DNA of 64,000 nucleotides from Candidatus Hydrogenedens sp. (GCA_049968235.1 JBMFRC010000006.1:64001-128000); one strand, 5' to 3'. Shown: positions 1 through 35,957, counted from the stretch's first letter. Notes: generated from the letters alone by a model not told the origin. Translations and numbers: made by a program.

Positions 1-201
1 TATGGCTTTCAGTGGATTTCTTAACCATGGGGTTAATATTCCTATCAAACCGTAATCAAATATCATCCAGAGAGATGTATGTCCTCTTAAATTTACATTG
101 TCATGAAAAATCAAGCCATCAATACTTGACATAAACACTTCTAAAACTAAACCAAATAAAGCAAAGATAATAAAGCGAACAAGTGCTTTATGATAATTCA
201 T
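1..201 (-). CDS. Partial hypothetical membrane protein (N-terminal 67 codons; gene continues beyond window start)
   Basis: ATG at 201..199 (minus) preceded by AAGGT-like RBS. Open frame to position 1 with no stop. Translation MNYHKALVRFIIFALFGLVLEVF... is hydrophobic and helix-like. Not in the ORF track because it runs off the edge. Confidence 0.3.
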   Translation of the reverse strand, partial: MNYHKALVRFIIFALFGLVLEVFMSSIDGLIFHDNVNLRGHTSLWMIFDYGLIGILTPWLRNPLKAI

Positions 202-283
202 AATAATACCTTTTCATCGAATTTTTATTAGGAAAGATTACGAAGGATATTATTTTGTAGACTTGATTAATCAAAAAAATGTT

Positions 284-1720
284 TCATTTTTTTCTAAGAA
301 ATGGTAACTCGAACCCAAAAATACTTCCTTTTCCGGGCTGACTTTTTACAAAGACCTTACCTCCATGACTTTCGATAACCTGACGAACAATATATAAGCC
401 TAAACCGGAACCTGTAGAATCAACCCCTTCCATTTTCTGTTGTTTTAATCGCACAAATTCTTTGAACAATTTTGGAATGTCTTCTTGTGATATGCCAATT
501 CCATTATCTTCGACTTCAACCCGTACATAAGATAAATAAGTATATGAGCGAATAGTAATTGTACCATTCTGGGGTGTATATTTAATGGCATTGGTTAGAA
601 AATTCAGAATAGCCTCTCGAATTAATCTCTGGATACCCAAAACGAATATCTTTTTTTCTGGTAGTTCCAATTTAATCTCATGTCTCTTGCTTGCTATTAA
701 ATCCTGGTTTTCTTCAAGAATTTTTTCGATAAGGCTATTCAGTTCAAACTCTTTTGCTTCTCTTAACAGGTCAGCATTCTCCATTACGGAAAGATTTTCT
801 AAGTCGTGCAAAAAAGATACCAATTCATCAATTCTCGTTAGTGAGCGTTGAACCCAGGATTGTTGTGTTTCGTTTAATTCACCTCCGTATCCATAAAGCA
901 AATTTTGTAAATGCATGGCTATTGCAGAAATAGGGGCTCGTAAATTATGCAAGGCTATTTGCAAAAATCCTTTTCTTTGGTCACATAACCTTTCTAAATC
1001 CTTATTTATTCTTACAATTTGCCTTTGTCCTTCTCTGAGAAAATACATTAAGTGGGTCGTTAGTGATGCGGTTAAGAAGAATAATAAGCCTTGAACAACA
1101 GCCACTGTTATGATATATATTCCTGTAGGTGGGTTATCTGTTGGAACTGCCCCTATGGGATACATTTGAGGAATCCATTGAAGCCAACTAACAATTGCTA
1201 ATGTTAGAAAGAGTAGATAACCGTATATTGTATAAGTAAATGCAATTAAAGGGCTGAATAAAATACTTGCGATAATTACATGGAAAATAAAAAATGTCTG
1301 AAAAGGTGAATACACACCTCCTACCAACCATATTGCAATTGTTAAAAGTAAAAAGTCAGTAGCAATTGATAAATGTAAAATAAAAACAAGTAAAAACCGA
1401 TACTTTCGTGATTTTTCTTTCTTTTTCCTTGCGGGGAATGCAATTGCAAAGTTTAATAAATTTGCTAAAAATAGGATAATTGCTAACAGAATTAAAGCAT
1501 AGTGATTTAATTCATGAATTCCTAATATGTACTTTGCAAAAAGCGAACCTGCAACAATAAGAAAAGAAACAAAGAAACGGACAATGGTAAAGTCATAAAG
1601 TTGGTCTTCTAATCGAAGGCTATGTAAAAAAACAGGGAATGAACCTTCTTCATCCCTCAGAAAAAAACGAATTATTTTAGACAATAATGACTGGGAATAT
1701 TTACCTGAAGAGCCTGACAT
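284..1720 (-). CDS. Sensor histidine kinase with ~7 TM N-terminal receptor domain (HisKA + HATPase_c)
   Basis: About 230 aa N-terminus with ~7 hydrophobic helices. H-box-like LHNLRAPISAI. C-terminal N/G1/G2 boxes (NAIKYT, DNGIGI, GSGLGL). True ATG start. Same strand and immediately downstream of the hox operon and receiver gene. Confidence 0.8.
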   Translation of the reverse strand: MSGSSGKYSQSLLSKIIRFFLRDEEGSFPVFLHSLRLEDQLYDFTIVRFFVSFLIVAGSLFAKYILGIHELNHYALILLAIILFLANLLNFAIAFPARKKKEKSRKYRFLLVFILHLSIATDFLLLTIAIWLVGGVYSPFQTFFIFHVIIASILFSPLIAFTYTIYGYLLFLTLAIVSWLQWIPQMYPIGAVPTDNPPTGIYIITVAVVQGLLFFLTASLTTHLMYFLREGQRQIVRINKDLERLCDQRKGFLQIALHNLRAPISAIAMHLQNLLYGYGGELNETQQSWVQRSLTRIDELVSFLHDLENLSVMENADLLREAKEFELNSLIEKILEENQDLIASKRHEIKLELPEKKIFVLGIQRLIREAILNFLTNAIKYTPQNGTITIRSYTYLSYVRVEVEDNGIGISQEDIPKLFKEFVRLKQQKMEGVDSTGSGLGLYIVRQVIESHGGKVFVKSQPGKGSIFGFELPFLRKK

Positions 1721-1818
1721 TTTTCCCCTTCAGAATGTTTCATTTTTCTAAATCTATTGTATAAAAAAAAACAGAGCAACTCTCCTTTTTTTTTTTTTTA
1801 TTAAACAGACTTTCCTTA

Positions 1819-2196
1819 TTATGCTACACCTAATTTTGCTTTCAAAGTAGAAATCAAAACCTTCGGGTCAACAGGTTTCTGGAATATACCAGCCAGTCCT
1901 AATTCGCGAGCATCAATGTTATAGCGAACCGCATCACCTGCGGAACTTAACATATACATAGGTCCGGGATATTTATCTCCCTTTAATTTTATAGCAACCT
2001 GACTTCCGGAATCTACATTTTCCATCATTAGATCTATAATAACTGCATCAGGTTGTATTCTCTGAACTGCTTTTAATCCTTCTTCTCCGTTAGCCGCCTC
2101 TCCAACAACAAATCCGGCGGATTCTAACATAACTCTCAGTGCAGAGCGAATATCTGGGTCATCATCAATAATAAGAATAACTTTTTTTTGTTCCAT
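1819..2196 (-). CDS. Single-domain response regulator (CheY-like receiver)
   Basis: 125 aa. N-terminal DDD acidic pocket, phospho-acceptor Asp in VIIDLMM, conserved SSAGD and FQKP Lys. No output domain. Confidence 0.85.
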   Translation of the reverse strand: MEQKKVILIIDDDPDIRSALRVMLESAGFVVGEAANGEEGLKAVQRIQPDAVIIDLMMENVDSGSQVAIKLKGDKYPGPMYMLSSAGDAVRYNIDARELGLAGIFQKPVDPKVLISTLKAKLGVA

Positions 2197-2677
2197 GTTC
2201 CCTTCTCCTTTGTTGATTTAATATGTTATTTAAAAATTGCCATGCTAATTCAAGATTATTTTTTGCCTCTTCAGTAATCCCTTCACCGATTGTAAAATCA
2301 TAACCTCTGATACCTAATATCCACGATTCTGGAGCAGAACCGAAATATTCATCACAAATAGCAATTACCGATTCTGCATTTACAGAATGTGTCGAAAAGG
2401 TTATATTTTTTGAAGGGAATACTCTTTTTAAGTAAAAAGGTTCATCACCTTCTTTCGATGCATCTACAAATAATACTTTATCATAATTTACCAGTTCAGC
2501 ACCTAATTCAATATTTAACTGGTAATCAGCATCTGTATTAACATTATCATGGTTCATCTGTTTAACACGTTGGACAAATAAAGGTCCCAACGCATCATCA
2601 TGACGCTCCGGATTTCCATATCCGAAGATGAGTATTTTTTCATCCTCTAATAAGTTCATGAACGAGTTTACCTTCAT
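2165..2677 (-). CDS. hoxW: Hydrogenase maturation endopeptidase (HoxW/HycI family)
   Basis: ILIFGYGNPERHDDALG motif typical of the Ni-dependent C-terminal processing protease. Directly downstream of the large subunit. An alternative start at internal Met (2659) with AAGGT RBS is possible. Confidence 0.75.
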   Translation of the reverse strand: MKVNSFMNLLEDEKILIFGYGNPERHDDALGPLFVQRVKQMNHDNVNTDADYQLNIELGAELVNYDKVLFVDASKEGDEPFYLKRVFPSKNITFSTHSVNAESVIAICDEYFGSAPESWILGIRGYDFTIGEGITEEAKNNLELAWQFLNNILNQQRRREHGTKKSYSYY

Positions 2678-4085
2678 GGTTCATTATTTGTATTTGTAAG
2701 GGCATCTGTCCTAATGCATGGGTTGCACAACTCAAACATGGGTCATAAGCACGGATACCAACCTCAATAGTGTTTAATAACCCTTCCGTTATTTCAGATT
2801 TTCCTTGCAAATAATCTTTTGCCAGGACATTTACAACCTGATTCATAGGTTCATTATTATTGGTTGTAGATACGATTAGGTTTGCAAGAACAATCTGGTC
2901 GTTATCATTAATTTCATAATGATGGAACAAAGTTCCACGAGGGGCTTCTATCCACGCGACACCACGTTTCTGTTTTGTTCCCTGAGTAATTAGATTTGTC
3001 CCCTGTAAATCAGGGTCGTTTAACAAATCTTTTATCTTCTCAGCGGAATGCAACATTTCGATTAATCGTGCCCAGTGATATGCCATAGAAGCATTTATAG
3101 GCTTTCCACCTGTTAATGACATTAATTCCTGTCTTTCTTTCTCGGCTAATGGAGTATCAATAAAATCACAATTATTGATACGAGCCAGAGGTCCCACCCG
3201 ATACCATCCTTTTTCTTTTCCTAAGGAACGAATGAACGGGAACTTCATATAACTCCACGGACGAACTTCCTCTGCAATGTAATCAAGATAATCTTCGGGC
3301 TTGACCATATCGAAGATTATCTTTCCATCTGCTGTTTTAGCCCTTAATAAACCATCGTACAGGTCAAGACAACCATCTTTTCGGACAATGCTTAAATGAT
3401 TGGAATCAAAATAACCAAATTTAAGGAAAAAGTCTAATTTCTCTTTTACTATTTTTTTACATAATTCAACGGACTCTACAGACCATTTTATGATGGTATC
3501 AATATCCTTCAGGAAAACATCTCTTTCTTCAATAGATAGGTTTTTATTAATACCACCGGGAATAGCACCTGTCCCATGGACTTTTTTCCCAGCAGTGGCT
3601 TTAATAATTTCCTGACCATATTTTCTCAATAAAACAGCCTTCTTTGCTGTTTCCGGGTCTGCTTTTATCACCCCAATTACATTTCTTTGTTCAACCGGTG
3701 CATCAAATCCGAATAATAAATCGGGAGAACAAAGATAGAAAAAGTGTAGTGCGTGGGACTGTAAGGTTTGTCCATAGTGCATAAGTCTTCTCATCTTTTC
3801 TCCGGTAGGAGTTAATGTTTTTGCTCCTACAATAACATCGGTTGCTTTTGCAGCACAGAGGTGATGACTTACAGGACAAATTCCACATAGTCTTTGAACA
3901 ATGGTTGGGGCTTCCCAATAAAACCGTCCCTGAACAAATCGTTCAAAGCCACGAAACTCTATAATATGGAAACGGGTTTGTTGCACATTCCCTTTCTCAT
4001 CTAAGAGGATAGTAACTTTCCCGTGTCCTTCTACCCGTGTAACGGGGTTTATTACAATTTTTCTTCCTGTTGTTTTTGTACTCAT
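2640..4085 (-). CDS. hoxH: [NiFe] hydrogenase large subunit, group 3d (HoxH)
   Basis: N-terminal RLCGICPVSHH (L1 RxCGxC Ni-binding motif) and C-terminal DPCLSCATH (L2 DPCxxCxxH). 481 aa, matching cyanobacterial HoxH length. Confidence 0.9.
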   Translation of the reverse strand: MSTKTTGRKIVINPVTRVEGHGKVTILLDEKGNVQQTRFHIIEFRGFERFVQGRFYWEAPTIVQRLCGICPVSHHLCAAKATDVIVGAKTLTPTGEKMRRLMHYGQTLQSHALHFFYLCSPDLLFGFDAPVEQRNVIGVIKADPETAKKAVLLRKYGQEIIKATAGKKVHGTGAIPGGINKNLSIEERDVFLKDIDTIIKWSVESVELCKKIVKEKLDFFLKFGYFDSNHLSIVRKDGCLDLYDGLLRAKTADGKIIFDMVKPEDYLDYIAEEVRPWSYMKFPFIRSLGKEKGWYRVGPLARINNCDFIDTPLAEKERQELMSLTGGKPINASMAYHWARLIEMLHSAEKIKDLLNDPDLQGTNLITQGTKQKRGVAWIEAPRGTLFHHYEINDNDQIVLANLIVSTTNNNEPMNQVVNVLAKDYLQGKSEITEGLLNTIEVGIRAYDPCLSCATHALGQMPLQIQIMNHEGKLVHELIRG

Positions 4086-4103
4086 AGATACTGCCTCCTG
4101 AAA

Positions 4104-4652
4104 TTAGTCGTATTTTATAAGTTCATAATCAAGACTTAACGGTTCTCCTTTTAATAAGGCAACCAATGCGTTCCAAATCGTATCTGCGGAAGGTGGGCAA
4201 CCGGGCAGGAAATAATCAATTTTCACTACCTCATGACAGGGATATACCTTGTCTAATAAAACGGGAATATCCGGGTCATTGGGGATAACCCCTGTATTTT
4301 CACTTTTTACAGTGGGACCATTCAGATATGCCTCTTCCAGACATTCCTTTAATGGAACTAAATTCCTCATGGAGGGAACTCCTCCTGTCAAAGCACAGGC
4401 ACCGATGGCAACAAGAATCTTACAATGTTTTCTAAATTCCATCAGTATCTCTGCATTTTCATCATTACTGATACCACCTTCAATAATCCCAATATCTACA
4501 GGTTTTGTAAAATTTTTTATATCATTTATAGGTGACTTGTTAAATTCCACCAATTCAACAAGGTCTAAAATACGCTCATCAATGTCCAAAATAGACATAT
4601 GGCATCCAAAACATCCCGTAAAATGGGCTGTTGCTACAACAGGTTTACTCAT
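4104..4652 (-). CDS. hoxY: [NiFe] hydrogenase small (delta) subunit HoxY
   Basis: 182 aa (same length as Synechocystis HoxY). Proximal-cluster Cys pattern FTGCFGCHMS ... GACALTGG ... LPGCPP. Confidence 0.85.
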   Translation of the reverse strand: MSKPVVATAHFTGCFGCHMSILDIDERILDLVELVEFNKSPINDIKNFTKPVDIGIIEGGISNDENAEILMEFRKHCKILVAIGACALTGGVPSMRNLVPLKECLEEAYLNGPTVKSENTGVIPNDPDIPVLLDKVYPCHEVVKIDYFLPGCPPSADTIWNALVALLKGEPLSLDYELIKYD

Positions 4653-4671
4653 AACTCCATTCCTTTCCTGT

Positions 4672-5388
4672 TTATAATTTCACTTTTTTTGTTTCTATTT
4701 CTGAACCAATCGGCTTCTTGTCGTAAGGTCTCTTTCCAACAGGTGTTAAATACCCTTGCCTCTTCACTACAAGGCACCCCGTAGGACAAACAGACATTGC
4801 TTTATCATCTTTTGTCAAATTGGTATCTTTCAATCCATCGTTGGAGTTTACCGAAATTCGCATGTTAATTCCTCGATTTTCAAAACCAAACACATTTTTC
4901 TTGTCCAGATGTATAGATGCTCTTACACAACGACCACATAAAACACAGCGATTCCTATCTAAATAGACATCGGGATGAGTTGCATCGAGTTCTTTTTGAG
5001 CATATAAATAAGGCATCTGTGGAGTTAATAATCCGAGACGATATGCTAAAGCCTGTAATTCACATTTTCCAGCAACCTCACATGAAGGACAGAAATGATT
5101 CCCTTCCACGAATAACATTTCAATAATGTTCCTGCGGAAACCATTCAATTCTTCCGTATTATTTTCTACAACAATCCCTTCAGCAACAGGATATGTACAG
5201 GAATTAACAGGTCTTCCATTTACTTTTACTGTGCAAACTCGACAATGACCACCCGGAGGAAGGTCTTTAAGATAGCACAATCTCGGAATATATATCCCTG
5301 CATCATCTGCAGCTTGAATTATCGTTTTATCCGGAGCAGATTTTACTTCAACTCCATCAATTGTAAAAGTAACTACATTTGTACTCAT
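4672..5388 (-). CDS. hoxU: Diaphorase subunit HoxU (NuoG-like 2Fe-2S/4Fe-4S ferredoxin)
   Basis: 238 aa. N-terminal 2Fe-2S ferredoxin fold (CRVCTVKVNGRP...C) followed by the HFCPSCEVAGKCELQ and CVLCGRCVRA cluster motifs typical of the NuoG N-terminus and HoxU. Confidence 0.85.
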   Translation of the reverse strand: MSTNVVTFTIDGVEVKSAPDKTIIQAADDAGIYIPRLCYLKDLPPGGHCRVCTVKVNGRPVNSCTYPVAEGIVVENNTEELNGFRRNIIEMLFVEGNHFCPSCEVAGKCELQALAYRLGLLTPQMPYLYAQKELDATHPDVYLDRNRCVLCGRCVRASIHLDKKNVFGFENRGINMRISVNSNDGLKDTNLTKDDKAMSVCPTGCLVVKRQGYLTPVGKRPYDKKPIGSEIETKKVKL

Positions 5389-7160
5389 TATTTTACTCCT
5401 TCCATTGTTCTTCCACTTGCTTCTATACCAATTTTCATAGCTTTTTGCAAATCAAAGGTTAATAATTTACCATCTTCTTCTTTGATTCTTTCTGCATATA
5501 AATCTGCAAAATCATAAATAGTTGTTAATACAGGATTTGCAGATGTTTGCCCTAGTCCACAACGACTCATGGATTTTACCGTTTGCGCTATTCTCCGCAA
5601 TTCAGCAAGGCTTTGGGCAGTGCCTTTACCATCCAGTATCTGTCTAAATTTCTTTTCAAGTAGTGTGGTTCCAGCCCTACATGGGACACACCAACCACAA
5701 GATTCTTCGATAAAAAACTCTATAAACTGATGCATACACTCTAATAAATCTCTATTTTTACCAAAAATCATGATAGAACCACCGGTTGGAAGGTCCTCAA
5801 ATGAAATTCGTCTACCAAAATCCTTGGGGGCTACACACTTTCCAGAAGCACCGCCTACTTGAACTGCCTGTGTATCTTTGGCACCTACCAGTTCTAACAG
5901 ATTCTCTATTGTTATTCCATACTCAACCTCATATACTCCTGGATGCTCACAATCACCGGAAACACTTAACATTTTTGTTCCTGTTGAGTCTTTTGTTCCA
6001 ATCTTCGCAAACCATTCTCCGCCCTTTTCTAATATACGAGCAGCACAACATAGCGTTTCCACGTTATTTACAGATGTGGGTTCGCTTTTATATCCTTTCT
6101 GAACAGGGAACGGTGGTCTATCGCGAGGAGCGCCTCTTTTCCCTTCTGCCGACTCAATAAGTGCAGATTCTTCACCACACACATAAGCACCTGCACCCAA
6201 TTGAATTCGAATATCAAAACTAAAATCTTCTCTACCACAAATATGTTCACCTAATAAACCCAAATGTCTTCTTTTTGCTAAAACCTTTTCAAGATTATCT
6301 AATAAATAAGCATATTCTCCACGAAGATACATTATACCTTCTTTAGCACCGATGGCATACCCTGCAATAGTCATGCCTTCAAAAACCAGGTCAGGATACT
6401 CTGTCAATATAACGCGGTCTTTAAATGTTCCGGGTTCCCCTTCATCTGCATTACATATAAGATAACGAATGGGTGATTTTTGCTTTCTACAAAAATCCCA
6501 CTTCATTGCTGTAGGAAAGCCGGCTCCTCCTCTTCCACGAAGCCTTGACTTATTTATTTCTGCAATAACATCTTCAGGTTTCATATTTAACGCATTTCGG
6601 ATTGCCTGTCCGTTCTCTAATGGGGCACATATAACTTCCCCTTCTTTTTTCAAATTCAACAAAACTCGTGCTTGTGGCAAATCAGAAATATCCTTACCTG
6701 CTTTAATATCACTTATAATTTTAGGAACATCCGCAGGTTTAAGATTTGTAAACGGTATATTGTTTATTAGTGCACCTGGAGCCTGGTCACTTAGACCGAT
6801 ACATGAGGTATGAAGCAAAGTAAACAAGTTATCCTTTGTAGTTTCACCAAAGGATATACCTAATTCCTTTTCAAAGGCTTTCCCTACTTCATCAGCCCCT
6901 TTCATTCTTTCTATAACTGCATTAGCAAGTCTTATTACATTCTTCCCAAGAGGTTTTCTTGGTAAAAAAGAATAAAAACTGACCATATCCCGAACCTGTA
7001 CCATAGGCATGTTCAGGACCTCTGCAACATGTGCGGCCATCTCATCCGAAATATAGCCGAATTCTTTAACAATATCGTGGGCTATATTCATCAGATAACC
7101 GCAGTCATTGCCATATTTATTGGCAATGTTTTTGATTTGTTCTCGGTAATGGTGGGTCAT
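5388..7160 (-). CDS. hoxF: Diaphorase subunit HoxF (NuoE-like N-terminus fused to NuoF-like NAD(P)H/FMN/4Fe-4S domain)
   Basis: GAGAYVCGEESALIESAEGKRG FMN/NADH-binding signature of NuoF. ESCGWCVPCR 4Fe-4S motif. N-terminal thioredoxin-like NuoE-like region. AGGAG RBS upstream. 1-nt overlap with hoxU start. Confidence 0.85.
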   Translation of the reverse strand: MTHHYREQIKNIANKYGNDCGYLMNIAHDIVKEFGYISDEMAAHVAEVLNMPMVQVRDMVSFYSFLPRKPLGKNVIRLANAVIERMKGADEVGKAFEKELGISFGETTKDNLFTLLHTSCIGLSDQAPGALINNIPFTNLKPADVPKIISDIKAGKDISDLPQARVLLNLKKEGEVICAPLENGQAIRNALNMKPEDVIAEINKSRLRGRGGAGFPTAMKWDFCRKQKSPIRYLICNADEGEPGTFKDRVILTEYPDLVFEGMTIAGYAIGAKEGIMYLRGEYAYLLDNLEKVLAKRRHLGLLGEHICGREDFSFDIRIQLGAGAYVCGEESALIESAEGKRGAPRDRPPFPVQKGYKSEPTSVNNVETLCCAARILEKGGEWFAKIGTKDSTGTKMLSVSGDCEHPGVYEVEYGITIENLLELVGAKDTQAVQVGGASGKCVAPKDFGRRISFEDLPTGGSIMIFGKNRDLLECMHQFIEFFIEESCGWCVPCRAGTTLLEKKFRQILDGKGTAQSLAELRRIAQTVKSMSRCGLGQTSANPVLTTIYDFADLYAERIKEEDGKLLTFDLQKAMKIGIEASGRTMEGVK

Positions 7161-7545
7161 AACTTCCTTACTCCTACAAAAATTTGACTTACTTATTAAC
7201 TTACCGTTAGGTAAACAACTATATTACTATATCATATTTATCACTATATTTCAATATTGTTCGACATTATTTCAAATATTTTGCAAAAATTGCTAAACTA
7301 TGTTTTTATACGCATAAATTGAGGCTATTTTGTTGCTTCGTTCATTTTATTATCAAAAATTTGGTATTACTATTTAATATATTAGTAATACTATTATTGT
7401 TATTGCACTACACCCGCAAAAATATTTAACTTGTATTTATTCTTAAAAAAATTTCTTTTTTACTTTTCTATTTATTACTTTGATTTTTTTGTCTTTTTTC
7501 TTGTAGAATTAAGGCTTAATTCAAAAGAGGAAAGTTAGAGTAAAA
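7161..7545. promoter_or_regulatory. AT-rich divergent intergenic region between hoxF (-) and ybaB (+); likely holds promoters for both operons
   Basis: 385 bp with no ORF, very AT-rich. Flanked by divergently transcribed operon starts. Several TTGnnn/TAnAAT-like hexamers but no single confident -35/-10 pair. Confidence 0.4.
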
Positions 7546-7884
7546 ATGTTCAATTTTAAAGACATTTCACAGTTAGGTGGTCTCTTAAAAGAGGCTATGC
7601 AAGTTAAACAAAAGATTGAGACTTTAAAAGAAGAATTAGCCAAAGAAATTATTGAAGGCGAATCCGGTGGAGGCATGGTTAAAATTCAAATGAATGGAAA
7701 ATTTGAGGTTCTGAATATATCTATATCTGATGAGGTATTTTCAGAAGGTATGGCGGATAAGTCATTATTAGAAGCACTTATTTTATCCGCTTTTAATGTT
7801 GCTTCCGAAAAAGTCCGTTTGCTTGCAAAAGAGAAAATGAAAGAAATATCAGGTGGTATTGAAATATCAGGATTGATGGATTAG
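7546..7884 (+). CDS. ybaB: Nucleoid-associated protein YbaB/EbfC
   Basis: 112 aa. Typical YbaB pattern (MFNF..I.QLGGLLKEAMQVKQK...GESGGGMVK). AAGAGGAAAG RBS. Confidence 0.85.
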   Translation: MFNFKDISQLGGLLKEAMQVKQKIETLKEELAKEIIEGESGGGMVKIQMNGKFEVLNISISDEVFSEGMADKSLLEALILSAFNVASEKVRLLAKEKMKEISGGIEISGLMD

Positions 7885-8831
7885 TGAGAATACTCTTTTT
7901 TGGAACACCCGAAATTGCAATCCCATCATTACAGAAACTCCATAACCATTTTTTTGTTGTTGGGGTTGTCTGTCAACCGGATAAACCAAGTGGGAGGCAT
8001 CTTCGCATTACTCCACCGCCTATTAAAGTAGAAGCTGAAAAATTGGGTATACCCGTTTTTCAACCTGAAAAAGTTAATGATCCTATATATTTACAGCATT
8101 TTAAGAATTTACAACCTGATATTGGCGTTGTTGTGGCTTATGGTAGATTTTTAAAAGAAGAATTACTATCATTGCCCAAATCAGGATATTTTCTTAATTT
8201 ACATCCCAGCCTTCTTCCGCGATGGAGAGGACCTTCCCCCATACAAACTGCGATACTTGAAGGTGATACGGAAACGGGGGTAACAATTATGAAAATTTCT
8301 ATGGAAATGGATGCCGGAGATATTTTGTTGCAAAAATCTACATCTATTGATATTAATGAAACCGCAGAAGAACTTACTCATAGGTTATCCATAATGGGTG
8401 CGGATTTGTTAATACAATCTATCCATTTAATTGCAGAAAATAAAGCGGTATTTACCCCTCAGGACCATTCAAAGGCAACTTATTGTCATCTCATTGAAAA
8501 AAAACACGGTATTATACATTGGGAGTTACCGGCGTTGACAATACATAATTGCGTTCGTGGCTGCCTCCCCTGGCCCGTGGCTTTTACAAAATTTAAAGGT
8601 GAAATTATACGGATATATAAAACCGAATTAATATCTGGAAGTCAAAATTATAATGATGTAAAATCGGGCACCGTAGTAGAAATAAAAAAAGATAAATGTA
8701 TTGTAAAAACAGGAAAAGGATTGATAGGCATTTGTGTGCTTCAAGCACCAAACAGAAAACCCTTAACTTTTCGTGAATATATAAATGGCAAACCTATATG
8801 TATAGGTGATATTTTTGAGGATGCGTTGTAA
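7884..8831 (+). CDS. fmt: Methionyl-tRNA formyltransferase
   Basis: GTG start. MRILFFGTPE N-terminus. HPSLLPRWRGPSPIQ (SLLP formyltransferase motif). C-terminal Fmt domain. Confidence 0.9.
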   Translation: MRILFFGTPEIAIPSLQKLHNHFFVVGVVCQPDKPSGRHLRITPPPIKVEAEKLGIPVFQPEKVNDPIYLQHFKNLQPDIGVVVAYGRFLKEELLSLPKSGYFLNLHPSLLPRWRGPSPIQTAILEGDTETGVTIMKISMEMDAGDILLQKSTSIDINETAEELTHRLSIMGADLLIQSIHLIAENKAVFTPQDHSKATYCHLIEKKHGIIHWELPALTIHNCVRGCLPWPVAFTKFKGEIIRIYKTELISGSQNYNDVKSGTVVEIKKDKCIVKTGKGLIGICVLQAPNRKPLTFREYINGKPICIGDIFEDAL

Positions 8832-30323: not shown

Positions 30324-33300
30324 ATGGGTAAATACAAGAATATGGTTGCACAATTATTATTCATTCTTTCAATTACTTTAACATCTTATTGCTTTTCACA
30401 GGATAATTTGAAAAATACTTCTTATTTAGAAAATTATTTTTTCCATTCTGAACAGAACAACCATTATTTTGCTTTTTCAAAAAATCAATACTTTGAAATT
30501 ACACCGGGTAGTCTAAAAATATGGATATGGAATCCTATAAAAAATGCCTTTTGTGAACCTGTAGAAATTTGTTTTCTTAACAATGAGAGTAATGCTGTCC
30601 TGGGAAGTGAAAAATCTGATGTAACATACAGTTATTATTCAGGAAATAATCCGGATAATTGGATACATAATAATTTTGCCTATAAGAAATTATGTATTCC
30701 CAACATTTACAAAGGAATTGACCTTGAATTTTACTTTAATAATCATGAGTTAGAGTTTGATTTCATCATTAACTCTCAAACAGATACTAATCAAATCCTT
30801 TGGAGAATCTGTGGGAATAATGTTGAATCACATATTGAAAACAATCAATTAGTTATTACAAATAACGAAGGCTATACATACACTTTTAGCATTCCAGAAA
30901 TATACAAATCCGCAATTAAAAATCCTGCGAGTATTCTTTCACATAATGTTTCTTTTTTAGATTTAGATGGGAATACATACCAAATCTATGTTGATATTCA
31001 TGATAGAAATTCCGAATTGCTTATAGACCCAATACTTACATTATCAACATATATAATTTTTCCGTCATCCAACTGGCCTTCTTCGCTATTTACCAAAATG
31101 TGTTTAGACTACTATAACAATATTGAGGATATTGCTTTAATAGGGGGAGCCATTGAATTTCCCGGTTCTTCTGGAACGGATGTATCAGGATTTTTATGTA
31201 AATTATCCCCACAATTAGGGAAAACACATCATATTGTTTTTATAAATGGAATGGGTGAAGATTATATAAATTTCGTTACTCATTTTATAAATATGATGAA
31301 TGAATTTATCGTTATAGGTGGGAAAACAAATTCTCTTAACTTTCCGACTGTTAACCCAGTCCAACCTTTAAATAGCATTCTGAACAGAAATGGAACATCT
31401 GGTGAATTTGATGGTTTTCTTATGATGTTTGACAAAGACCTAAGGATAACTTTTTCTACTTTTGTCGGTGGGAGTGGATATGACTCTATTGAAGATATTA
31501 ACATTAACACCAATAATTTATTTTTTGCAGGGAATACAAATTCTACTGATTTACCTCTGGTAAATTCTTCATTAAAAACTCAAAAAGGACTACTTGCAGA
31601 TGGTTTCTGGGGTATACTGAAACTTACGGACCCATTGGAGTGTCGATATATAACAAAATTAGGCATAGATGGCATTGAAATCAAGGATATTGAATCATAT
31701 TCAACAATTATATATCTTTGTGGAAATACAAGCGTAGGTTTACCGTATTTTAACCCAATAGTCCCGGAAACACCTGTTCAAGGGCAGGACATCTTTATTC
31801 AAACTTATTCATATTCTGAAGGCACAACAATCCCTGATATTAGTTTATTATCTTCTTTATTCTTAGGCGGTTCGGATAATGATATATTGGAAAAATCTAT
31901 TCTTCTGAATACAAATACCCTTTGTTTGGCAGGGAATACATATTCAAATGATTTGCCAGAACCTGTCATTTCGACAATACCTGAAAAAATACCTGAAAAA
32001 ACTTATCCTTTTCTTATATTAGTTAATCCAACAGTAACTCAAAAATTAATAGGTACTCACTATATCTTTGGTAATGGAACCGATATAATAACTGATATAA
32101 AAACACCTAGTACCGATTCAAGCACATTTTTCATTGTAGGTTATACCAATAGTTATTTTGAAAATTTTAATTGGAATAACACCGAATTTACTTCCAATCC
32201 GTTTGATACCTCGCTCAATAATGGGGCAAATGAAAACTTTGATGCAATGGTATGGAGACTTCAATGGAACAGCATAGAAAATACAATCACGCCTACATGG
32301 GGAACATTTTTAGGGGGAACTTTAAATGATACAGCATTGTCCATAGGTACTGTTGATAGTAATCACATTTGCTTTTCGGGTATAACAAATTCTCCTGATT
32401 TCCCATTACAGGGGTGTCAAACTATAGCACCAGCATATTTACCAAGCCATTATTTATCTGCTTTTAATATATCGGGTAAAGTTATATATGTAAATCCTGA
32501 CAGTTCTGTTGATCCCACTGATGGCAGTTCATGGGAAAAAGGTTACCATACTATTTCAGAAGCCATTAGTTCTGCTAACAACTATGATGAAATATGGATA
32601 AAATCTGGATATTACAATGAAAGGCTTACAATTAATGGATTTTCAAATCTTATCTTGCGAGGTGGTTTTTCAGGTTTAGAAACGAATATAGATGAAATAA
32701 ATCCATGGGAAAATCCAACAAAGATTTCCCCTATACAGGTAAAAGGAACGGGAAACTTAGGAACACCCACCTTAAATATTACATCGTGCATGAATATTGT
32801 ATTAAATGGACTTGTTTTTGAAAGTGGAACTAATATACTTGGTGATGGTGGAGCCATAAATATTTCTAATTCCACTGTTCGTATCCTATGTTCTCAATTT
32901 TACAAAAACAATTCAAATGGGAACGGTGGGGCTATCTATATTAATAATTCGTATGCAAACATCGCAAACTGTGTATTTGTTCAGAATTCTTGTTCAGGAA
33001 ACGGTTCGGGTATTTCTGCTAACGAATCTACAGTTAAAATTATACATTGCACATTTGCTAACAATTTTAATTCCGTTAGCGAAGATGTTAGCACTGTAGA
33101 CATTCAAGGTTCTACATCTATGCTAATGATACTCAACTCTATAATCTGGGCTAATGAGGGAAATACTCATGTTCAGATAAATTATCCTGAAATTATTCCT
33201 CCTGTAAATCTTCTATTCAGCCATTCAATTATCCAAAATTTCAGTTTATTATCTACACCACCATCACCCAATACCGTACTTGATACTAACCCTCTATTTA

Positions 33301-35957
33301 TTGAGAACCCGTCCGAAACAACACCTGGCGACTTAAATTTAAATCTGGAATCACCAGCGGTAAATCTTGCTGACCCAATCTCACTTACAATAGAATACGG
33401 TGCTGTTAATGAAGATATTCGTCGCAAACCGCGAATATTTATGGGAGAGAGTTGTAAACCTGATGCAGGAGCCTTCGAAATATTTCCTGCTCCCACACCT
33501 GTAATCACACTCTTGGGCGATAATCCCTTATATTTAACTATAAATAATCCCTACATTGAACCTGGATATGTATCTAAAGATGGATGTGATGTTGATATAA
33601 CATTTTTAGTAGATGTTACTTCCAATGTAAATACAGAACAGACAGGAGAATACACTGTAGAGTATTCGGTAATAAGTCCGTATGACCAGGGACAGATAAT
33701 AAAAGCAATCCGGAGAGTTATAGTCATCACTGCTTCATCGCAAATCATCCTTAACGGACCATCCGATGTGGTAATAGAATGTGGAAACTTTTTTATTGAC
33801 CCCGGTGCAGTAGCATTTGATTTATTGGGGAATAATATTTCCAATGAAATTATTGTTACGGATAATGTTGATTATTCAACTCCTGGAACATATACCATAG
33901 AATATAGTGTAACAGAGACAGAAAGCCATCCTGCCCTTCATGCTGTAAGAAATATAACGGTTCAGGATACAACTCCCCCAATACTTATTCTAATAGGTCC
34001 TCCGCAGATTACCATTCCTTGTGGTTCAACATGGTCTGACCCGGGATACATTGCATTTGACCAATGTTCACTTAATAATGTGCAGGTAAATGTAACAGGT
34101 AGTGTAAACACTTCTGCCACTGGAACCTATACGATTACTTACACTGCCTATGATGAGAACGAACATACATCCACTCTCACAAGAAAAGTCGTTGTTGATT
34201 GCAATATTCCTCAATTACAACAATGCCAGAATCAATGTTCTAATGATACTTCTCCTGTAGATAACGATGGAGATGGTCTATCATTTTGTATAGAGACTTG
34301 TTTGGGGACATCCGACCAGGATATAGATAGCGATGATGATAGTATGCCGGATTATTTTGAAGCAACATATAACTTAAATCCACTATTTAATGATGCGAAG
34401 GAAGATGCAGATTTAGATGGATTATCAAATCTTGAAGAATTTCTTACAAAGACCAATCCTATTGATTCCAATTCTCCATGGGAAGCCCATTATGTATCTA
34501 ATTCTGGCGATGACGATAATCCCGGGACATTGCAGTCCCCTCGTGCTACTATAACAACTACTCTTGGCAATATTAATACAAATCAAAATAAACAATCCTC
34601 TATTGTGCTGTTTCCAGGGAATTATTATGAAGATATTGTTTTATCAGAAAATATTGTTTTAATTGGAATCACAGCCTACGGTGAAAATAACAGACCTGTT
34701 ATCTACGGAAAAATTACGGGGGCTAATGGAGCAAAAATTTATAATGTTGATATAAAATCCAGTACAACCTCACCTGCAATAATTCCTGTTAAAGCCGAAG
34801 TTGAGAAGCCCATACTTCTGAATTGTGGTAATACTTCCATGCATATACGAAATGTCCGCTTTTTAGGTACAGGTTCGGAGATAGGTATATCTGTAGAAGG
34901 TGGAAATTGCTATAACACCATTATAGAGAGATGCCTCTTCCAGGATTTAAGTATTGGAATTCTAATAGGTGATAGTATCCCTGTTATCAGGAGATGCATT
35001 TTTAAATCATCACTTTCAACAAAAACTGATTCAACAGGTATTTATATTGAAGATAATTCAGGAAGTTACAATCCATCCAATTCTTTAGGTGATGTTAATG
35101 ACCCCAATACAGGTTGGAATACATTTAATCTTAATGGAGGAAAAGCGATAGTATGTAAAAGAGCCGAGGAGATTAAGGCTCATAACAATGACTGGGGAAC
35201 AGAGGATAGTGGAGAAATTTTAAATCAAGTTGAAGGAAATTTAGATACCCAATATTATCTGGGGAAAGGTAAAGCCATGATTGCTTCTTCACTTGCATGT
35301 GTTGTGTGGAATGCCAATAACAGAGACCCTATCATCAACGCCACGGTAGCAATAAATCCTTCTGTCTATCCACCATTAACACAAAATACAAAAGGCGTTT
35401 ATACTTTCTCATCCATTCCATCAGGGACCTATACCATAACAATATCTGCCCCTAATTTTTTAACACGACAGATTAATACAAATATACCTGAAGGAGATTT
35501 AAAATCTGAATCTGTAGCATTAAAACCTGTTGAAGGTGAAGGAACGGCTGATGGAGAAGGAACTACCGAAGGAATTCAAGAAGGTTCTACGGAAGGAACA
35601 ACTGAAGGTGAAAAAGAAATATTAATTCCTGATGTAAGAGGAATGTCTGTAGAGGAAGCAACTCAAGTATTAAATTCTGCAGGACTTCGTGTTTCAAATA
35701 CTATAAAAGAAGAATATAACCAGGAAGTTTCCAGAGGGAAAGTTACTCGAACGGAACCAGCAATCGGGACAAAAGTAGTCCAAAATACAGAAATAACTCT
35801 GGTAGTTAGTAAGGGGGCAAAAAGAAGATTTATTATTTCCTGTGGTCCTAATTACAATAGAAACTCGTATTGGGGCGATATAATCATTTGTATCTTTGCA
35901 TCCACCTTGCTTTTGTACAATCGTCCAGGAAAAGTATCTATAAATAAGAACAAATAA
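30324..35957 (+). CDS. Giant (1877 aa) multidomain surface protein: SBBP repeats, right-handed beta-helix, 3x DUF5011 Ig-like, TSP3-type Ca-binding repeats, second beta-helix, CarboxypepD_reg-like, EG-repeat linker, C-terminal PASTA domain + hydrophobic tail
   Basis: Signal peptide. SBBP repeats (NTNSLNFPT.., NTNSTDLPL..). Beta-helix repeats (GGAINISNSTVRI, GGAIYINNSYANI, NGSGISANESTVKI). DUF5011-like units (PVITLLGDNP...GEYTVEYSV, GTYTIEYSVTE, GTYTITYTAYDE). DNDGDGLS/DIDSDDDSMPD/DADLDGLSN Ca-binding loops. PASTA (IPDVRGMSVEEATQVLNSAGL...TEITLVVSKG). Confidence 0.75.
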   Translation: MGKYKNMVAQLLFILSITLTSYCFSQDNLKNTSYLENYFFHSEQNNHYFAFSKNQYFEITPGSLKIWIWNPIKNAFCEPVEICFLNNESNAVLGSEKSDVTYSYYSGNNPDNWIHNNFAYKKLCIPNIYKGIDLEFYFNNHELEFDFIINSQTDTNQILWRICGNNVESHIENNQLVITNNEGYTYTFSIPEIYKSAIKNPASILSHNVSFLDLDGNTYQIYVDIHDRNSELLIDPILTLSTYIIFPSSNWPSSLFTKMCLDYYNNIEDIALIGGAIEFPGSSGTDVSGFLCKLSPQLGKTHHIVFINGMGEDYINFVTHFINMMNEFIVIGGKTNSLNFPTVNPVQPLNSILNRNGTSGEFDGFLMMFDKDLRITFSTFVGGSGYDSIEDININTNNLFFAGNTNSTDLPLVNSSLKTQKGLLADGFWGILKLTDPLECRYITKLGIDGIEIKDIESYSTIIYLCGNTSVGLPYFNPIVPETPVQGQDIFIQTYSYSEGTTIPDISLLSSLFLGGSDNDILEKSILLNTNTLCLAGNTYSNDLPEPVISTIPEKIPEKTYPFLILVNPTVTQKLIGTHYIFGNGTDIITDIKTPSTDSSTFFIVGYTNSYFENFNWNNTEFTSNPFDTSLNNGANENFDAMVWRLQWNSIENTITPTWGTFLGGTLNDTALSIGTVDSNHICFSGITNSPDFPLQGCQTIAPAYLPSHYLSAFNISGKVIYVNPDSSVDPTDGSSWEKGYHTISEAISSANNYDEIWIKSGYYNERLTINGFSNLILRGGFSGLETNIDEINPWENPTKISPIQVKGTGNLGTPTLNITSCMNIVLNGLVFESGTNILGDGGAINISNSTVRILCSQFYKNNSNGNGGAIYINNSYANIANCVFVQNSCSGNGSGISANESTVKIIHCTFANNFNSVSEDVSTVDIQGSTSMLMILNSIIWANEGNTHVQINYPEIIPPVNLLFSHSIIQNFSLLSTPPSPNTVLDTNPLFIENPSETTPGDLNLNLESPAVNLADPISLTIEYGAVNEDIRRKPRIFMGESCKPDAGAFEIFPAPTPVITLLGDNPLYLTINNPYIEPGYVSKDGCDVDITFLVDVTSNVNTEQTGEYTVEYSVISPYDQGQIIKAIRRVIVITASSQIILNGPSDVVIECGNFFIDPGAVAFDLLGNNISNEIIVTDNVDYSTPGTYTIEYSVTETESHPALHAVRNITVQDTTPPILILIGPPQITIPCGSTWSDPGYIAFDQCSLNNVQVNVTGSVNTSATGTYTITYTAYDENEHTSTLTRKVVVDCNIPQLQQCQNQCSNDTSPVDNDGDGLSFCIETCLGTSDQDIDSDDDSMPDYFEATYNLNPLFNDAKEDADLDGLSNLEEFLTKTNPIDSNSPWEAHYVSNSGDDDNPGTLQSPRATITTTLGNINTNQNKQSSIVLFPGNYYEDIVLSENIVLIGITAYGENNRPVIYGKITGANGAKIYNVDIKSSTTSPAIIPVKAEVEKPILLNCGNTSMHIRNVRFLGTGSEIGISVEGGNCYNTIIERCLFQDLSIGILIGDSIPVIRRCIFKSSLSTKTDSTGIYIEDNSGSYNPSNSLGDVNDPNTGWNTFNLNGGKAIVCKRAEEIKAHNNDWGTEDSGEILNQVEGNLDTQYYLGKGKAMIASSLACVVWNANNRDPIINATVAINPSVYPPLTQNTKGVYTFSSIPSGTYTITISAPNFLTRQINTNIPEGDLKSESVALKPVEGEGTADGEGTTEGIQEGSTEGTTEGEKEILIPDVRGMSVEEATQVLNSAGLRVSNTIKEEYNQEVSRGKVTRTEPAIGTKVVQNTEITLVVSKGAKRRFIISCGPNYNRNSYWGDIIICIFASTLLLYNRPGKVSINKNK
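35530..35612 (+). repeat. 12-nt tandem coding repeat (xEGx)n, block 3
   Basis: Encodes VEGEGTADGEGTTEGIQEGSTEGTTEGE. Same gaagg 12-mer periodicity as in the 14315..17698 gene. Confidence 0.6.

Follow-up and report, generated by a model that had tools for sequence, protein, structure and literature searches.

A receiver-only response regulator linked to the maturation protease HoxW in hox hydrogenase operons of Candidatus Hydrogenedens and other uncultured bacteria

Introduction

The locus described here raises a simple question: what does a response regulator that consists of nothing but a receiver domain do at the end of a hydrogenase operon? The locus lies in a 64,000-nucleotide stretch of DNA (hereafter the window) from Candidatus Hydrogenedens sp. 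(GCA_049968235.1, JBMFRC010000006.1:64001-128000), where seven co-directional open reading frames (ORFs) run along the minus strand from 7160 to 284 in the order hoxF-hoxU-hoxY-hoxH-hoxW-receiver-kinase. A preliminary description of the window had proposed the same row of genes, i.e. hoxFUYHW followed by a receiver-only protein and a kinase, and all seven ORFs were recovered at their coordinates and on that strand.

The known control of [NiFe]-hydrogenases is exerted on transcription (by HoxJ/HoxA, FNR, LexA/AbrB and similar systems) or on the supply of nickel. To our knowledge, the hydrogenase maturation protease has so far been seen as a finishing tool that works constitutively and is not regulated, and full-text searches of the literature turned up no account in which HoxW or any other hydrogenase maturation protease is linked or fused to a receiver. 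The new part of this locus is the receiver tied to HoxW; the hydrogenase and the features of its HoxF subunit are already known. We propose, tentatively and as a serious possibility short of a probability, that the receiver acts by a phosphorylation switch on the maturation step that involves HoxW and the precursor of HoxH (pre-HoxH), and that it is fed here by a histidine kinase with six transmembrane helices (6TM).

Results and discussion

A receiver family dedicated to hox operons

The receiver gene (1819..2196, minus strand) encodes a protein of 125 amino acids (aa) in which Response_reg is the only Pfam domain (E = 2.7e-22). The acidic pocket D11-D13, the phospho-acceptor D55, S84 and K107 are intact in the window protein, and in the family alignment D11-D13, D55 and K107 (as K107-P108) are invariant, and S84 nearly so, across phyla. 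The family is a tight one: 276 database proteins were found at E < 1e-15, most of them 60-80% identical, which exceeds the conservation of the kinase (about 40-50%). Its conserved stretches are DDD, D55, LMME.VD.G, LSSAGD.VRYN.D and LGLAGIFQKP.

A scan of one genome per species returned 522 relatives of the receiver, and the locus counts given here rest on the best 80 of them, which come from the Hydrogenedentota, Spirochaetota, Planctomycetota, Verrucomicrobiota, Gemmatimonadota, Acidobacteriota (Vicinamibacteria) and Sumerlaeia. All of these best 80 are encoded in hox operons, directly 3' of hoxW or, in two loci, of hoxH. HoxH is encoded upstream of the receiver in each of the 68 scan loci with at least 2 kb of upstream sequence, HoxW in 67 of the 68, and a complete hoxFUYH set in 55 of the 56 loci with at least 5.2 kb upstream, counts that are not phylogenetically independent. 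The lone exception to the last count is a truncated second copy in the Spirochaetota metagenome-assembled genome (MAG) MFD04492.bin.2.86 (L051, 8588-10366; loci are cited by our own L numbers), where the 3' part of hoxH is followed by hoxW and the receiver without hoxFUY; the same genome also has a complete hox operon (L049). Chance adjacency was considered and rejected.

Where no kinase follows the receiver, the next genes are unrelated (uvrA, hypF, a gene for an M16 peptidase, genes for ABC components and transporters), and the operon therefore ends at the receiver. When the downstream genes of these kinase-less loci, which include spurious antisense ORFs on high-GC contigs, were clustered, no alternative conserved partner was found 3' of the receiver. 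The receiver is dedicated to the hox operon, and it is the receiver alone that forms the conserved partner of the hydrogenase.

Some of the contigs in this set are labelled Nitrospirales or Nitrospiraceae (L017, L018, L023, L024, L027, L030, L031, L033 and L047). Their receivers are 73-90% identical to those of Hydrogenedentota loci, they group with Hydrogenedentota on the HoxH tree, and the labels of these MAGs look mis-binned or misclassified.

Overlap and fusion of hoxW and the receiver gene

The gene for the maturation endopeptidase, hoxW (2165..2659, minus strand), has its longest ORF from 2677 and its likely start at the ATG at 2659. Its product scores 72.8 bits against TIGR00072, the hydrogenase maturation protease family (cut-off 47.45), and keeps the metal-ligand motifs GNPxxxDD, FVDA and THS; D18/D19, D63 and H88 are invariant in an alignment of 46 fused homologues. 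A sequence search of the Protein Data Bank (PDB) with HoxW gave no match at E < 0.001. HoxH has a C-terminal extension of 24 residues beyond the cleavage-site histidine (ALGQMPLQIQIMNHEGKLVHELIRG region), which is consistent with its cleavage by HoxW, an endopeptidase that would be specific for HoxH.

The receiver gene begins at an ATG (2196) that overlaps the 3' end of hoxW by 32 nt in a different reading frame, and just 5' of this ATG stands AAGGAGAAGGG, a strong Shine-Dalgarno (SD) sequence. Because of this overlap and this SD sequence, hoxW and the receiver gene are predicted to be translationally coupled within one transcript. We rejected the idea that a sequencing frameshift had split the two genes, since independent assemblies (L001-3, L010-12, L014 and L030) show the same 32-nt overlap.

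In many relatives the two genes have merged. They form one ORF in 47 of the 78 scan loci that have both (~60%) and in 49 of all 87 loci examined, three of which were confirmed by translation. One fused protein, used as a query, found at least 120 distinct clusters with lengths of 241-306 aa; most of them cover 97-100% of the query and have a receiver domain, and the public names of these clusters say only 'hydrogenase maturation protease'. A search of a representative library with HoxW gave a single 285-aa match among the best 150, a figure that is uninformative on the frequency of fusion because fused proteins collapse into few 50% clusters. Both the metal-ligand motifs of HoxW and the phospho-acceptor residues of the receiver are invariant throughout the 46 fused sequences, and on a neighbour-joining tree of HoxH the fused or split state has changed at least 13 times.

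The AlphaFold model of a fused HoxW-receiver protein has two good domains and a disordered linker at residues 147-153 (pTM 0.54). In a PDB fold search the receiver half of the model matched RR468, Spo0F and DivK with TM scores of 0.87-0.92 (0.92 for Spo0F); the search returned generic receivers only and no two-domain analogue of HoxW-receiver.

The membrane histidine kinase

The sensor histidine kinase gene (284..1720, minus strand) encodes 478 aa with a hydrophobic N-terminal half. The protein matches HATPase_c (E = 8.5e-28) and, just under the gathering score, HisKA (E = 1.8e-5), and it has a weak match to Pfam 6TM_PilS (PF25323) of 18.7 bits against a cut-off of 27 (E = 0.0015). The preliminary description had given it seven membrane helices; the AlphaFold model (pLDDT 78) predicts six (~37-225), the sixth of which is continuous with the DHp helix that bears H258 and is followed by the HATPase domain. 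Neither the Pfam search nor the model revealed a HAMP, PAS or large periplasmic domain. As modelled, the topology is PilS-like, a matter of resemblance and not of membership. With the PilS-type 6TM kinases it shares the six helices, the near lack of periplasmic loops, the direct join to DHp and a GG..SP motif within a membrane helix. Unlike PilS, the kinase has no pilin genes nearby and no PilR-type NtrC regulator as partner, and its family is found beside hydrogenase clusters. In the family alignment R48, D122, WLVGG..SPF, W179, P184 and G190 are invariant in the membrane part, and 24 homologues share H258 in LQIALHNLRAP together with NAIKYT, DNGIGI, FxEFVR and GSGLGL.

We sampled the genomic contexts of seven full-length homologues (37-89% identity). 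Five of them adjoin hoxFUYHW and the receiver, in one case, a planctomycete, in a convergent arrangement, and another stands convergent to hycI at the end of a membrane [NiFe]-hydrogenase cluster of the group 4 Mbh/Mrp type; a general link of the 6TM kinase family with hydrogenases is thus conceivable. The hycI neighbour, 37% identical, comes from Hydrogenedentes bacterium UBA2224 (L091, 8001-9958; DDYW01000193.1), and on another contig (L015) of that genome HoxW and the receiver are fused within a hox operon. In the scan, a 6TM kinase is adjacent in 13 of the 67 loci with enough downstream DNA, about one fifth, and it is a recurrent but dispensable neighbour of the hox operon and the receiver. 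Of the dedicated signalling pair that had been suggested for this locus, the receiver thus stands as dedicated to hox operons but the kinase, with its adjacency in about one fifth of the species, does not. A kinase of another kind follows the receiver in L013, a soluble receiver-HisKA-HATPase hybrid in place of the 6TM protein.

In the window the kinase gene is separated from the receiver gene by 98 nt, which hold a terminator-like hairpin (1762..1799, minus strand) with an A-run, a short G+C stem and T9 (dG -9.3 kcal/mol, z -2.8). Its stem is degenerate in the window, so that a simple scan overlooked it, and the fold of the whole 116-nt receiver-kinase spacer is unremarkable (z -1.2). The hairpin becomes convincing because the alignment with relatives shows a conserved element: counterparts with a perfect CGGAGC/GCTCCG stem and a T-run (T7-8) are present in L001, L010-L012, L004 and L014, and the four that were folded (L001, L012, L004 and L014) gave dG of -14.7 to -19.3 and z of -5 to -8. 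On this alignment we consider the hairpin a predicted intrinsic terminator that is conserved in the genus. A terminator that separates the signalling genes from hoxW had been named beforehand as a finding that would speak against the preliminary description; the one found lies between receiver and kinase rather than at the junction of hoxW with the signalling genes. The claim that the signalling genes are contiguous with hoxW accordingly suits the overlapping receiver better than the kinase, which is 98 nt further and behind the hairpin. It is likely that hoxW and the receiver are co-transcribed, whereas co-transcription of the kinase is doubtful or attenuated.

The kinase bears on two other explanations of the receiver. 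It adjoins the operon repeatedly, across several phyla and in either orientation, and the catalytic and acceptor residues are intact in both proteins, as would be expected if kinase and receiver formed a two-component system over hox transcription, in line with the preliminary description, and worked through a further DNA-binding partner or a phosphorelay. Single-domain receivers such as Spo0F can feed phosphorelays, and it is Spo0F that the receiver model resembles (see the TM score above). We nevertheless consider this model improbable: no Hpt protein, DNA-binding regulator or other relay component is conserved beside the operon in the sampled loci, the fusion partner of the receiver is a protease and not a transcription factor, and most loci have no adjacent kinase. 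Conversely, the lack of a nearby kinase in most fusion loci and the presence of one kinase homologue away from any hydrogenase could mean that the receiver is a degenerate or phosphorylation-independent appendage of HoxW, such as a solubility or dimerisation domain, and the kinase an unrelated neighbour. This strikes us as very unlikely. Pseudo-receivers normally lose the acidic-pocket and phospho-acceptor residues, whereas D11-D13, D55 and K107-P108 are invariant here, and S84 nearly so, across phyla; moreover, homologues of the 6TM kinase adjoin hydrogenase clusters in six of the seven sampled contexts.

A possible phosphorylation switch in HoxH maturation

The phosphorylation switch that we propose for the HoxW/pre-HoxH step could operate as follows. 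The last cistron of the hox operon would supply a phosphorylatable receiver whose synthesis is translationally coupled to that of HoxW, and the 6TM kinase downstream, expressed separately or at a lower level behind the terminator, would be its probable phosphodonor in this lineage. Because the receiver lacks an output domain and most related species have it fused to HoxW, it would act through protein contact at the maturation step. Phosphorylation would alter the way in which HoxW engages or cleaves the C-terminal extension of nickel-loaded pre-HoxH, and active hydrogenase would be made only when the membrane-derived signal of the kinase permits. The fusion of a receiver to a protease argues for post-translational control rather than for control of hox transcription, and profile searches found no DNA-binding domain in either the kinase or the receiver. 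The pairing of kinase and receiver, the direction of the effect and the choice of HoxW or pre-HoxH as the target are the parts of this scheme that we infer. With yet more reserve, one may suppose that HoxW-receiver proteins make up a widespread class of phosphorylation-gated metalloenzyme maturation proteases, in which a two-component signal decides on the cleavage and assembly of pre-HoxH.

Several points weigh against the switch, one of them being the phylogenetic dependence of the scan loci noted above. Two operons, L013 (194-3278) and L028 (8416-10372), are devoid of hoxW and have the receiver directly after hoxH, and the tie may therefore be to the hydrogenase and not to HoxW; in both, HoxH keeps its C-terminal extension although the operon has no hoxW. 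In the fusions the Met at the junction is invariant, and a GGAG-type, SD-like motif lies 5' of it in 85% of the fused loci, compared with 24% of random windows in the same genes (an example is L016, 9990-10003; its counterpart in the window is 2196-2215). Because the receiver's own Met and SD-like motif are kept inside the fused ORFs, a free receiver is probably made from these ORFs as well, i.e. two products through internal initiation, and the tether between HoxW and the receiver may not be essential. No defined interface between receiver and protease was predicted by AlphaFold for the fused homologue (pTM 0.54). As for the kinase, 12 of 28 split loci have a 6TM kinase next to them but only one of 39 fused loci does (Fisher 5e-5, not corrected for phylogeny), a bias towards split loci that may be due to shared ancestry, and one of the seven sampled homologues is encoded away from any hydrogenase. 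Its pairing with the receiver is plausible and circumstantial, being drawn from genomic association.

Part of this evidence would suit the main rival explanation, in which the finished hydrogenase has the receiver as an accessory regulatory subunit, similar in function to HoxI of the Ralstonia enzyme: once phosphorylated, it would bind HoxFU or HoxHY and tune activity, direction or cofactor use, and the fusion to HoxW would be a by-product of adjacency, tolerated owing to the flexible linker. We judge this explanation unlikely. It is favoured by the receivers that directly follow hoxH in L013 and L028, by the start codon and SD motif conserved inside the fused ORFs, which make a free receiver likely, and by the lack of a predicted fixed interface with HoxW. 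The place of the receiver after hoxW also has a parallel in the Ralstonia operon, whose order is hoxFUYHWI and where HoxI is thus encoded right after hoxW. It is opposed by the fact that every HoxW molecule bears a receiver in ~60% of species, and by the two genes having gone from fused to split or back at least 13 times and yet always having stayed together, which is hard to explain if their products act on different partners. Nor is HoxW known to be a component of the mature hydrogenase.

If the proposed switch at the maturation step is real, it would be the first two-component system to act directly on the step that irreversibly completes [NiFe]-hydrogenase biogenesis, and it would occur in at least six bacterial phyla. 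Hundreds of uncultured fermentative or anaerobic bacteria would then have a post-translational checkpoint, and their cells could keep a pool of pre-loaded enzyme to be switched on by a signal. A phosphomimic or a deletion of the receiver would offer a cheap, testable handle on the heterologous production of soluble hydrogenases, and a functional annotation would become available for at least 120 protein clusters that at present bear no label beyond 'hydrogenase maturation protease' or 'response regulator'.

Comparison with known signalling systems

The system of the window differs from the H2-sensing HoxJ/HoxA and HoxBC (HupUV-HupT-HupR) of the Proteobacteria, in agreement with the preliminary description: its 6TM kinase has no PAS domain and its receiver has neither an AAA+ nor a helix-turn-helix (HTH) domain. 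In both cases a histidine kinase and a receiver protein are genetically tied to a [NiFe]-hydrogenase. However, HoxJ is soluble, has a PAS domain and docks on a regulatory hydrogenase, and HoxA/HupR is a transcription activator of the NtrC type (receiver-AAA+-HTH), whereas the receiver described here is devoid of an output domain and is linked or fused to a maturation protease. No second (regulatory) hydrogenase was found in the 64-kb window.

The receiver also resembles RssB, CpdR, CheY, Spo0F and DivK, single-domain or adaptor receivers that control proteolysis or act through protein contact: it has a canonical receiver fold without a DNA-binding output and likely works through contact between proteins. 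Its best NCBIfam and PDB matches include RssB, although the likeness to these proteins is at the generic level of receivers (~30-35% identity) and does not amount to family membership. These proteins steer ClpXP degradation, flagellar motors or phosphorelays, and we know of none that is the partner of a metalloenzyme maturation endopeptidase.

The hydrogenase

The hydrogenase encoded with the receiver is itself ordinary. Compared with the contig AWNW01000002.1 of Candidatus Hydrogenedens terephthalaticus, HoxW is 87%, the kinase 90% and the other five proteins of the locus 96-98% identical. The diaphorase subunit HoxF (hoxF, 5388..7160, minus strand; 590 aa) consists of an Nqo2/NuoE-like thioredoxin-fold domain (Pfam 2Fe-2S_thioredx at 9-152, E = 4e-35) fused to a NuoF-like FMN/NAD(H)/4Fe-4S module (Complex1_51K and NADH_4Fe-4S). 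Its stop codon overlaps by 1 nt with the start of hoxU (4672..5388, minus strand), which encodes a NuoG-like 2Fe-2S/4Fe-4S electron-transfer subunit of 238 aa (Fer2_4, NADH-G_4Fe-4S_3 and Fer4_Nqo3); the best NCBIfam match of HoxU is HoxU PRK07569 (E = 1.5e-56), with 191.5 bits that stay below the curated cut-off of 333. The small subunit HoxY (hoxY, 4104..4652, minus strand; 182 aa; Oxidored_q6, E = 4e-30) is short and has the four Cys of a single proximal cluster. The large subunit HoxH (hoxH, 2640..4085, minus strand; 481 aa; NiFeSe_Hases) carries RLCGICPVSH and DPCLSCATH. In the PDB, HoxH ranks the NAD-reducing hydrogenase 5XF9_D (573 bits) above 7T2R_D (511 bits) and the group 3c Mvh protein 5ODC_F (430 bits), and relatives 97% identical to it bear the precomputed Pfam HoxH family PF27537.

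The best PDB match of HoxF is likewise 5XF9 (chain A, 398 bits over residues 26-560, N-terminal domain included). With both HoxH and HoxF closest to 5XF9, the proposed assignment to the NAD(P)-coupled group 3d without hoxE is supported, and by its sequence the enzyme would belong to the soluble-hydrogenase subtype of that group. It had also been suggested that an E-like region is fused to the N-terminus of HoxF and has lost most of its 2Fe-2S cysteines. Alignment with NDUFV2 confirmed this: the pattern C-x4-C / C-x3-C reads A..I / C..S in HoxF, so that three of the four ligands of cluster N1a are gone, and the remnant TsCiGLSDQAP and the same Cys pattern are common to the window HoxF and the 5XF9 HoxF. 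The fused, cluster-less HoxF is a published architecture and not a new one; the HoxF of the Ralstonia soluble hydrogenase is an Nqo2-Nqo1 fusion without N1a (Lauterbach et al. 2011, PMC3189943), in a paper that also mentions HoxI of that enzyme.

The same subunit set and gene order, hoxF-U-Y-H-W, are found in Ralstonia eutropha/Cupriavidus necator and in Hydrogenophilus thermoluteolus (source of 5XF9), and with the soluble hydrogenase of these bacteria the enzyme also shares the N1a-less Nqo2+Nqo1 HoxF, the short HoxY with one cluster and the HoxH with a C-terminal extension that HoxW removes, the last feature being read here from the genes. The differences begin after hoxW, where Ralstonia has the cyclic-nucleotide-binding-like HoxI and the loci studied here have a receiver domain, which in most relatives is fused to HoxW. 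The hosts differ as well, being uncultured anaerobic or fermentative lineages (Hydrogenedentota, Spirochaetota, Planctomycetota and others) here and Knallgas Proteobacteria there. A search with HypA/B/C/D/F from related loci found no hyp genes across the 64-kb window.

Transcription signals and flanking genes

About 66 nt 5' of the ATG of hoxF lies a promoter-like site (7226..7254, minus strand) that consists of TTGAAA and TATAGT, 17 nt apart, and has a TG extension. In the consensus scan it has 10 of 12 consensus matches, although the number of sites found by the promoter and terminator scan of the window is not above shuffle expectation and the site is a candidate only. An Rfam scan of positions 1-8000 (E <= 1) found no riboswitch or leader 5' of hoxF, the sole match being a chance snoRNA-like one inside hoxF. 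Here hoxF and a divergent ybaB-like gene are separated by an unusually long (385 nt) and very AT-rich intergenic region (7161-7545), which includes the site and holds several promoter-like sites and no Rfam match. At the other end of the locus, a gene for a small membrane protein (MNYHKALVRFIIFALFG...) starts ~85 nt past the kinase stop codon (1-199, minus strand) and extends beyond the window; in L001 the counterpart has the Pfam domain ABC_trans_CmpB (PF06541), and the gene is conserved within the genus only. Elsewhere in the window, a very large ORF of 1877 aa occupies positions 30324-35957 on the plus strand.

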